Sequence record: MZ291552.2
Length of the DNA: 64,000 nucleotides
Source of the DNA: Escherichia phage vB_EcoM-UFV09
Reading direction: 5' to 3' (one strand)
The translations under genes and the position numbers were made by a program. Numbering within the stretch: the stretch's first letter is position 1; every line of letters begins with the position of its first letter. Positions 34,674-35,440 of this stretch are shown here, piece after piece. The notes below the pieces were generated by a model, which was not told the DNA's origin, did no database searches, and was given only the letters and a program-made list of their open reading frames with translations.

Positions 34674-34810
34674 AGTTTTGTGAAAAATTTTTTAAAAAGT
34701 TTTGGGGAATTCTAGGGCAAGGAGGGGAAATTAAAGGATAGGATAATATATTATAAAGGGTAGAAACTAAATGATGCCTAGAGAGGCCTGGAAAGGCTTA
34801 GATACCAAAA

Positions 34811-34834
34811 AGCCCCAACCTTTTGGTCGGGACT
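34811..34834 (-). terminator. Intrinsic terminator (10-bp stem, AAAA loop, U-tract) downstream of the 157-aa gene; repeat copy A
   Basis: RNA agucccgacc-aaaa-gguuggggcu followed by UUUUU. Confidence 0.6.
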
Positions 34835-34841
34835 AAGAATG

Positions 34842-35315
34842 TTATTTGATTTGTTTAGCAGACCAAATGCGGTCTTTAATAATTTTTTGGATGTCTTCAA
34901 CATACTCAAGAGAATGAGCATGTGGGTTATCTTTAAAGCTATGAGCACGAGCTAGCTTTTGGCCTTCAGTTTTGATTACTAAAAGCTCTTTAAGGATAGC
35001 TTCATATTTGGAGATAATTCCTTTAACGATATTTTTTTCTTGTGCGACTTTAGGATCTGCTTTAGGAGCAGGTTTACCCGAAGCCTTTGCAAAAGCAGCG
35101 CCAGTAGCAACTAAACTTTTCCAGGCCATACTAACTGCATTTCCCGTAAATCCTTCCGCTTTCATGTCGCGTGCGAACTGGAATCGTGATTCATCAGAAG
35201 CATCTTTGTAAGAATATTTACCCGCTGCAATGGCTGCTTTTGCGACAGCTTGAATTTCGGTGCTAGATGCTTCATTTAACACCGCTTCATTTAAAAATTG
35301 AGTATATGATTTCAT
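34842..35315 (-). CDS. Internal-protein-like candidate with capsid-targeting-like N-terminus (MKSYTQFLNEA), 157 aa, Ala/Lys-rich
   Basis: N-terminal motif resembling the T4 IP capsid-targeting sequence; late promoter TATAAATA about 35 nt upstream. Confidence 0.5.
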   Translation of the reverse strand: MKSYTQFLNEAVLNEASSTEIQAVAKAAIAAGKYSYKDASDESRFQFARDMKAEGFTGNAVSMAWKSLVATGAAFAKASGKPAPKADPKVAQEKNIVKGIISKYEAILKELLVIKTEGQKLARAHSFKDNPHAHSLEYVEDIQKIIKDRIWSAKQIK

Positions 35316-35351
35316 CTTATTTCCTGTTTTAATTCGTGGATTTAATATACT

Positions 35352-35359
35352 TATTTATA
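35352..35359 (-). promoter_or_regulatory. Late promoter (TATAAATA) driving the 157-aa gene
   Basis: tatttata on the plus strand. Confidence 0.55.
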
Positions 35360-35366
35360 CTAAAAA

Positions 35367-35389
35367 GCCCCAACCTTTTGGTCGGGGCT
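35367..35389 (-). terminator. Intrinsic terminator; repeat copy B (near-identical to copy A)
   Basis: RNA agccccgacc-aaaa-gguuggggcu followed by UUUU. Confidence 0.6.
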
Positions 35390-35440
35390 AAGCCTTGCGG
35401 CAACCTTGTCGGGGTTCCACCTGCTAAGGCAAGTGTTTGT

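Follow-up and report, generated by a model that had tools for sequence, protein, structure and literature searches.

Features of the locus

This report concerns an open reading frame (ORF) of 157 amino acids in Escherichia phage vB_EcoM-UFV09 (sequence record MZ291552.2), situated between rnaC and e.8, which probably encodes a previously unnamed internal protein (Ip) of the T4 type. The stretch of 64,000 nucleotides in which it was analysed, a segment of a Tequatrovirus genome, is referred to below as the window. The ORF was found where the original prediction had placed it, at 34842..35315 on the minus strand and with the start MKSYTQFLNEA. As in T4, the order of features on that strand is 57A, 57B, the ipI-locus gene, tRNA.4 to tRNA.2, a cluster of 11 tRNA genes, a 116-residue ORF, rnaD, rnaC, the 157-residue ORF, e.8 through to e.2, nudE, e and then two leader-bearing genes. 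The 801 bp around the ORF are 100% identical in Escherichia phages vB_EcoM-UFV05, 06, 10 and 11, and 97-99% identical to many RB51/RB68-like phages. An Rfam scan of the region returned tRNAs only, with no family match for rnaC or rnaD. The features are listed below, comparator genes last; a slash within a leader marks a predicted protease-type cleavage site, and the basis of each assignment follows the semicolon.

35440..35578, minus: rnaC (species 1 RNA), last in the tRNA/small-RNA cluster and upstream neighbour of the ORF; near-identical to annotated T4 rnaC in alignment, and annotated rnaC in RB68
35357..35392, minus: 36-nt direct repeat, upstream copy, with terminator T1 (hairpin 35366-35389 plus U5 tail); terminator scan and repeat comparison
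35352..35359, minus: T4-type late promoter motif TATAAATA, directly after the T1 U-tract and 36 nt before the ATG; exact match
35321..35325, minus: ribosome-binding site AGGAA, 5 nt before the ATG; read from the sequence
34842..35315, minus: coding sequence of 157 residues, 17.2 kDa, isoelectric point (pI) 9.5, phrog_2280 member, proposed internal protein; profile E = 3e-60
35271..35315, minus: codons 1-15, putative capsid-targeting leader MKSYTQFLNE/AVLNE/A; motif scan, relatives and reported key residues
35082..35267, minus: residues 17-78, conserved three-helix N-terminal domain (AGKYSYKD..SRFQF..D...GF.....AWKS); alignments and AlphaFold2
35031..35081, minus: residues 79-95, Ala/Lys/Pro-rich disordered linker SGKPAPKADPKVAQEKN; AlphaFold2 confidence and distant relatives
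34845..35030, minus: residues 96-157, C-terminal antiparallel helical hairpin; AlphaFold2 and a weak profile match to the cassette B protein described below
34802..34837, minus: 36-nt direct repeat, downstream copy, with terminator T2 (hairpin 34811-34834 plus U5 tail); terminator scan and repeat comparison
34644..34672, minus: early-type promoter of e.8 (TTTACA, 17 nt, TACTAT), in the conserved right flank common to T4; alignment with T4
38645..38929, minus: comparator at the ipI locus, a true IPI ortholog with leader MKTYQEFTSTTNASTLTE/A; phrog_4363, internal virion protein
30671..31478, minus: comparators, two adjacent leader-bearing genes at the ipII/ipIII locus, 31161-31478 (MKTYKEFIAE/S) and 30671-31144 (MKTYKEFITE/A), the RB68 gene at the position of the latter being labelled Ip4

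The N-terminal leader

The ORF had drawn attention through the likeness of its N-terminus to the capsid-targeting sequence (CTS) of the T4 internal proteins. The likeness is borne out: T4 IPIII does start MKTYQEFIAE, and the four residues reported to be key all match. The leaders of T4-type internal proteins have 10-19 residues and are of the type MKT(Y/F)xEF.... According to PMC9026906, which reviews Mullaney and Black 1996, residues 4 and 7 are the main determinants of CTS targeting and residues 8 and 10 those of processing, and the first 10 residues of IPIII are enough to package foreign proteins in T4. The leader of the 157-residue ORF has Tyr4 and Phe7 at the targeting positions and Leu8 and Glu10 at the processing positions. 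L-N-E/A occurs a second time at residues 13-15, and both sites fit the motif (L/I)-x-E of the prohead protease (gp21). From the intact N-terminus, MKSYTQFLNEAVLNEA, cleavage is predicted to yield new N-termini AVLNEASS... (AVLNEASSTEIQAVAK) after Glu10 and ASSTEIQ... (ASSTEIQAVAK) after Glu15.

The rarity of such leaders was assessed by scanning the window in six frames. The strict motif MK[ST][YF]..F[LIVM].E has three matches, against 0.003 expected from shuffled sequence: the 157-residue ORF and the two ORFs at the ipII/ipIII locus, each at the ORF start. The looser motif MK.Y..F has four, against 0.3-0.4 expected, and all of them are ORF N-termini, belonging to the 157-residue ORF and to three ORFs at the two known Ip loci. 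It is only this looser form that the IPI ortholog at the ipI locus fits; the leader of T4 IPI itself reads MKTFKEFTSTTTPVSTITE/A.

Leaders of the Tyr4, Phe7, Leu8, Glu10 type are kept in relatives of the protein down to 24-30% identity. In all relatives the form is M-x-x-(Y/F)-x-x-F-(L/V)-x-E, or slightly longer and ending in Glu, as follows.

Mosigvirus: MKSYAEFLTE/Q
Jiaodavirus: MKFKEFLAE/A
Yersinia phage fHe-Yen9-01: MLEYSEFLKELFCE/A
Cronobacter phage VP8 (Muldoonvirus): MKSFSSFLNE/G
Metagenomes: MLKFNEFLAE/G, MINFSDFLNE/G and MISFNEFVDGNLITE/S

As sequence evidence, the leader argues strongly for a CTS-bearing protein that would be directed to the head. A separate peculiarity of the Tequatrovirus leader is a 5-residue duplication (LNEA-VLNEA, window 35271-35300) that gives two tandem protease-type sites; the Mosigvirus, Jiaodavirus and Muldoonvirus leaders have one such site each.

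Terminators and late promoter motif

The ORF was also said to have its own exact late promoter and to stand between near-identical hairpin terminators, and both are there as sequence motifs. The flanking 36-nt direct repeats are identical at 34/36 positions and lie 555 bp apart, and the hairpins within them, T1 and T2, each comprise a 10-bp stem (with 7 and 6 GC pairs), a 4-nt loop and a U5 tail. They are predicted to be intrinsic (rho-independent) terminators, with predicted energies of -19.5 kcal/mol (z ~-3.6) for T1 and -16.8 kcal/mol (z ~-3.8) for T2. It had been foreseen that the repeats might prove to be generic terminators found at many unrelated loci. They are not, since the 25-nt core of the repeat occurs at just two places in 64 kb, even with up to 3 mismatches allowed, where 0 occurrences are expected.

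T1 is predicted to end the tRNA/rnaC transcription unit. An exact TATAAATA, the motif that T4 late promoters carry at about -10 with no -35 element, follows it at 35352-35359 on the minus strand, and the same succession of terminator and exact TATAAATA stands before the family gene in fPS-90, Klebsiella phage phiKp_22 and Cronobacter phage VP8. In phiKp_22 and VP8, from other genera, this arrangement goes with hairpins of different sequence.

Alternative states of the rnaC-e.8 locus

Alignment with T4 reveals an insertion of 555 bp in the window, its ends coinciding exactly with the two terminator copies. The single terminator of T4 has a left flank that matches the upstream copy and a right flank that matches the downstream copy; T2 and T6 likewise show just one terminator, and the 157-residue gene is missing from the region examined in each. 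With the empty site of T4 as query, the locus was found in the following states, gene A being the 157-residue gene.

Empty: T4, PST, ELT1 and pSe_SNUABM_01 (plus T2 and T6, by their own comparison)
+555 bp, gene A only: this window; common among the records listed, with at least 436 records, a count in which empty sites are not separated out
About +685 bp, gene B only: CHD94UKE2, ZCEC14 and Pu-Krd-SF6
About +1240 bp, genes A and B with three terminators: fPS-90, fPS-65, ZN18, G9062 and KarlGJung (Bas37)

Cassette B consists of a 187-residue ORF with the leader MKTYAEFLTE/AAKLPSE, a AATAAATA motif upstream and its own terminator. It is present in 165 records, in all of which it is annotated as hypothetical, and it too falls in phrog_2280 (E = 2e-53). 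BLASTP between the A and B proteins matches the leader alone, while hhalign adds a weak match between the C-terminal domains (probability 54%, E = 1.3e-4); by these profile comparisons A and B are distant paralogs. The rnaC-e.8 interval is, on the sequences compared, a polymorphic locus with zero, one or two leader-bearing genes. The cassette first suggested by the two repeats is supported by these comparisons: the edges of the insertion or deletion are the repeats themselves, a lone terminator stands in T2, T4 and T6 without the gene, and other phages carry A, B or both between terminators. Since the family is syntenic in five T4-like lineages (below), presence of the gene is probably ancestral, and we infer that the empty state of T2, T4 and T6 probably arose by recombination between the terminator repeats, which would delete the cassette cleanly and so explain the empty site.

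Family and synteny

The 157-residue protein matches phrog_2280 over its full length (residues 1-157, E = 3e-60), a family whose PHROG function label is 'unknown'; two of its relatives, P0018 and P0019, match the same family with E = 3.9e-35 and 1e-16, respectively. A tblastn search found the gene in 511 phage records: Tequatrovirus copies are 95-100% identical, Mosigvirus copies about 76%, and those of Klebsiella Jiaodavirus 50-58% over the N-terminal half. Database searches added Yersinia phage fHe-Yen9-01, Cronobacter phage VP8 and metagenomic relatives at 24-30% identity. The gene is called hypothetical in every record or cluster member examined, and the annotators of RB68, who named Ip4 and Ip5, yet left RB68_138, the present gene, unnamed.

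In every genome with context the gene occupies the same position, after a tRNA/rnaC-type region and before e.8 or e.6 homologs, and this covers five T4-like lineages; synteny was read without P0015, P0017 and P0019, whose contigs are too short.

The body of the protein had been judged unlike IPI, IPII and IPIII, rightly so: its PHROG is another one, and no BLASTP similarity extends past the leader. Only 13 hits came from a profile search across 1.8 billion representative proteins, and the ones inspected appear to be family members or fragments, so that no link to a characterised family emerges. There was no significant match in Pfam (the best, Shikimate_dh_N, has E = 0.12 and falls below the curated cut-off), and a PDB sequence-profile search found nothing below E = 2. 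Known non-injected homologs, which would have told against the original prediction, were not identified in these homology searches. Literature searched by ortholog locus tags yielded nothing relevant on the gene, the fPS-65/fPS-90 paper is without proteomics, and the supplements of Silas et al. 2025 contain no sequence strings of the 157-residue protein.

In VP8, a 72-residue ORF (L014:9786-10004) with the leader MKSFTEFLTE/SADLTLTE/A has an ATGA overlap with the start of the family gene, and both stand behind one terminator and one exact TATAAATA. The pair looks like a two-gene late operon of leader-bearing proteins, with the 72-residue ORF a further unnamed Ip candidate. Co-variation of the two leaders (MKSFTEFLTE/S and MKSFSSFLNE/G) is possible, on this one example.

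Predicted structure

An AlphaFold2 model was computed from an alignment of 8 sequences, with a mean predicted local distance difference test (pLDDT) score of 75. The leader is disordered in the model (pLDDT <50 for residues 4-15) and is followed by a three-helix domain at residues 18-71 (helices 18-30, 41-53 and 59-71). A linker, disordered at residues 81-86 (pLDDT <50) and also Ala/Lys/Pro-rich in the distant relatives examined, leads to a long helical hairpin at residues 88-154 (helices 88-124 and 132-154). Fold searches with the model returned only the protein's own orthologs or generic hairpins. The predicted mature form has 142-147 residues, a mass of 15.5-16.0 kDa and a pI of 9.5-9.6, similar to that of the window's own Ip proteins (pI 9.0-9.6).

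Published data on orthologs

On the presence of the protein in virions there are data from Yersinia phage fD1 (HE956711), whose g140 product is 98% identical to the 157-residue protein. It is listed as 'PPAP' at the full criterion, with no similar T4 protein, from liquid chromatography-tandem mass spectrometry (LC-MS/MS) of virions purified by ultracentrifugation (Table S3, PMC8309999); the peptide search was fully tryptic (PMC8309999). The protein is therefore made and co-purifies with particles, which is compatible with a head-targeted protein and does not of itself establish an internal location.

Phage Bas37 carries both genes, A as bas37_0244 (97% identical) and B as bas37_0243. On Escherichia coli K-12 bas37_0244 is non-essential, with 29/34 TA sites disrupted (HIDEN-SEQ, bioRxiv 10.1101/2025.11.20.689424), as expected for an accessory internal protein. 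The cassette B gene behaves otherwise in the HIDEN-SEQ tables: insertions hit 1/48 TA sites of bas37_0243 (L020:1178-1741), its reads are about 0 across all conditions and it is classed as 'Essential', despite the absence of B from T4, the phage of this window and many other Tequatroviruses. Three explanations offer themselves: a genuine need for B in Bas37, loss of the cassette from the parent stock of the library, or a technical call, Hoc and a homing endonuclease having about 0 reads in these tables as well.

Functions are established for several other internal proteins. Ip1, Ip2 and Ip3 each inhibit a distinct GmrSD enzyme (Silas et al. 2025, PMC12373910), and Bas37_0260, a leader-bearing protein at the ipI locus, inhibits McrBC (bioRxiv 10.1101/2025.11.20.689424). 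Five further GmrSD groups are active against T-even phages, and an assay of ten ip genes gave no new inhibitory interactions (Silas et al. 2025, PMC12373910).

Interpretation

The motifs, the cassette polymorphism, the synteny in five lineages, the ortholog in virion preparations and its dispensability are best accommodated if the 157-residue ORF encodes a T4-type internal protein at a third Ip locus, rnaC-e.8, a reading that we consider probable, though well short of certain. It would most likely be a new Ip family at a new locus and not a new mechanism. The gene would be transcribed late from its own TATAAATA promoter, with the transcript ending at T2. The 10-residue leader, through Tyr4 and Phe7, would carry the protein into the scaffolding core of the prohead, where gp21 would cut after Glu10 and/or Glu15. 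The basic mature protein (142-147 residues, pI ~9.6) would then stay in the head with the DNA and enter the next host with it. By analogy with Ip1, Ip2, Ip3 and Bas37_0260, the injected protein would most likely block one host defence, probably a modification-dependent (type IV) restriction enzyme; its inhibition would most likely be narrow in spectrum and directed at a host defence that the phage meets as its DNA enters, and we regard it as a candidate for an anti-defence role on that analogy. The two near-identical terminators would make the gene a self-contained, moron-like cassette.

Several results weigh against this reading. Bare TATAAATA is not enriched in the 64-kb window (12 found against 10.7 expected), so that it draws its weight only from its position and from its conservation in other genera, and Mosigvirus phage APCEc01 has AATAAATA where others have TATAAATA. 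Residues 3 and 6 of the leader are Ser and Gln against Thr and Glu in the T4 CTS, and cleavage and injection are predicted steps. The fD1 particle list has little specificity: DenV, NudE and thymidine kinase are among its 113 proteins (PMC8309999). Insertions in bas37_0244 cause no fitness change on K-12 BW25113, and relative to that host their log2 fold changes are -0.11 on CFT073, -0.30 on CFE299, -0.14 on CFE303 and 0.00 on CFE331, all with p > 0.5 (bioRxiv 10.1101/2025.11.20.689424); the last four are uropathogenic strains, making five hosts in all with K-12. The Pfam, PDB-profile and fold searches gave no functional lead. Finally, conservation of 95-100% in Tequatrovirus and synteny in five lineages are steadier than is the case at the hypervariable Ip loci, and the protein could thus be something other than an arms-race inhibitor.

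This last point brings in the main rival, in our judgement rather unlikely, according to which the protein is packaged by its CTS but serves as a DNA-associated component of the head, in charge neutralisation, in DNA organisation or in helping or protecting ejection, with linker and hairpin binding DNA. The whole protein is basic, and the linker SGKPAPKADPKVAQEKN is Ala/Lys/Pro-rich in the distant relatives examined and may resemble histone-H1-type tails. Such a role would fit this linker and the unusual stability of the family, syntenic in five lineages and 95-100% identical within Tequatrovirus, unlike the fast-changing Ip1-3 loci, and it would be in keeping with the Bas37 ortholog showing no host-specific phenotype in five hosts. 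However, the gene is absent from T2, T4, T6 and PST, and Bas37 grows normally with insertions in it, so no general structural role can be required, and every Ip with known function is a restriction inhibitor.

It is very unlikely, in our estimate, that the product is instead a late cytoplasmic protein, not specifically packaged, whose leader resembles a CTS without targeting function and whose detection by mass spectrometry reflects carry-over of an abundant late protein. The many non-structural proteins on the fD1 list, the differences at leader residues 3 and 6 and the fact that the cleavage step is a predicted one are compatible with that account. It is countered by the motif probability of about 0.003 per window and by the leader being the best-conserved feature among relatives at 24-30% identity; moreover, cassette B and the overlapping VP8 ORF, whose bodies have no BLASTP-level similarity, have the same leader at the same locus, and the CTS alone packages foreign proteins in T4 (PMC9026906). 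The notion that this is a spurious ORF flanked by generic terminators, to which only the lack of overall TATAAATA enrichment lends anything, can be set aside as refuted by conservation in 511 records and five T4-like lineages, a defined PHROG family, a confident helical model, the mass-spectrometric peptides of the fD1 ortholog and a terminator core unique to the locus in the window.

The internal-protein reading may also be extended, in a form that we hold to be distinctly unlikely as a whole. phrog_2280 would then be an ancient head-packaged and injected family across T4-like phages, each member having a variable N-terminal 'specificity' domain behind its CTS leader, then an Ala/Lys/Pro linker of H1-like type and a helical hairpin; recombination between terminators would have shaped the third Ip hotspot that the family occupies; its target would be other than GmrSD or McrBC, and B would be truly needed in Bas37 even on E. 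coli K-12.

Each of the four T-even internal proteins of known function is injected and inhibits type IV restriction, Ip1-3 acting against distinct GmrSD enzymes and Bas37_0260 against McrBC. The present family was probably missed because T2, T4 and T6 lack the gene and because the literature consulted counts two Ip loci (PMC12373910). Some 500 sequenced phages carry gene A, including many therapy candidates, and a further 165 records contain its paralog B. Recognition of the family adds two candidates, A and B, for screens of inhibitors against defences, and a third locus for mining T4-like genomes for injected effectors. The locus is also a clean natural example of terminator-bounded cassette gain and loss.

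Other features of the neighbourhood

The e.5 and e.6 orthologs lie at window 32808-33413 and 33455-34048, and their Bas37 counterparts by gene order are bas37_0239 and bas37_0240. Both of these are strongly depleted on CFT073 relative to K-12 in the HIDEN-SEQ tables (log2 fold changes of -3.6 and -6.5, adjusted p ~0), and a bas37_0240 deletion was built by the HIDEN-SEQ authors (bioRxiv 10.1101/2025.11.20.689424). A host-specific counter-defence role is possible for the e.5 and e.6 orthologs.

The IPI ortholog is flanked by a 54-nt direct repeat (38586-38639 and 38949-39002; 81% identical, 363 bp apart) that includes an early-type promoter. Its presence on both sides of the gene fits the repeat-flanked arrangement described for Ip loci. 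Weaker copies stand upstream of the ipII-locus gene (31516-31551) and of e.8 (34633-34686). The latter block, 67% identical, was considered as a copy of this ipI-flanking 'Ip-locus repeat' and was rejected as specific evidence: an early promoter in the T4 ndd record X75802 is matched by it as well, and it appears to represent the general early-promoter consensus. At the ipII/ipIII locus a 48-nt direct repeat (31115-31162 and 31449-31496; 90% identical, 334 bp apart) spans the ribosome-binding sites and leader codons of the two adjacent Ip genes, and would be a ready recombination substrate for deleting or swapping one of them.

The tRNA cluster at 36066-37080 has 11 genes (Gln, Leu, Gly, Pro, Ser, Thr, Met, Tyr, Asn, His and Arg), that of T4 having 8, without Met, Tyr, Asn and His; the window is without tRNA-Ile and without the segB homing endonuclease. 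A 116-residue ORF at 35697-36047, between tRNA-Arg and rnaD, has no equivalent there in T4, and the position is occupied in RB68, G4507, T2 and Bas37, always by an ORF labelled hypothetical. The e.7 position (34092-34268) holds a 58-residue ORF here, against the 111-residue e.7 in T4 and a 172-residue ORF in RB68, and is another polymorphic slot in the e.2-e.8 block.

Comparison with known systems

The closest parallels are the T4 proteins IPI, IPII and IPIII. Common to these and to the 157-residue protein are a CTS leader (aromatic at position 4, Phe at position 7, then (L/I)-x-E over 8-10), small size, basic character, dispensability, and a locus of presence or absence bounded by repeats; an ortholog of the 157-residue protein was detected in virion preparations. 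The differences are that its mature part bears no similarity to theirs and falls in another PHROG, and that its gene is absent from T2, T4 and T6. Position also sets it apart, although not mechanism: the 'two Ip loci' spoken of in PMC12373910 lie at 57B-tRNA and next to e/denV, whereas the present gene occupies the rnaC-e.8 interval. Early-type promoter blocks precede the window's ipI and ipII genes, whereas the 157-residue gene has an exact late promoter motif and flanking terminator repeats.

Bas37_0260 resembles the 157-residue protein in being a non-T4 Ip recognised by its leader alone, and shows that targets other than GmrSD are possible. It is depleted on BW25113 and its knockout is McrBC-sensitive, whereas bas37_0244 has no phenotype in the same screens (bioRxiv 10.1101/2025.11.20.689424).

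The T-even Ip loci, as far as Repoila et al. 1994 is cited in PMC12373910 and PMC3012670, contain alternative ORFs with only the leader in common, shuffled or lost through recombination between flanking repeats. The repeats at the 157-residue gene differ from these in being terminators and not early-promoter blocks, and its A and B genes in being apparent distant paralogs and not unrelated ORFs.

There is, finally, a resemblance to the phage 'moron', a unit of promoter, gene and terminator inserted between two genes. Like a moron, the cassette looks to be a self-contained transcription unit, present or absent between conserved neighbours; unlike one, it is predicted to encode a virion passenger made late in lytic growth and not a lysogenic-conversion gene.

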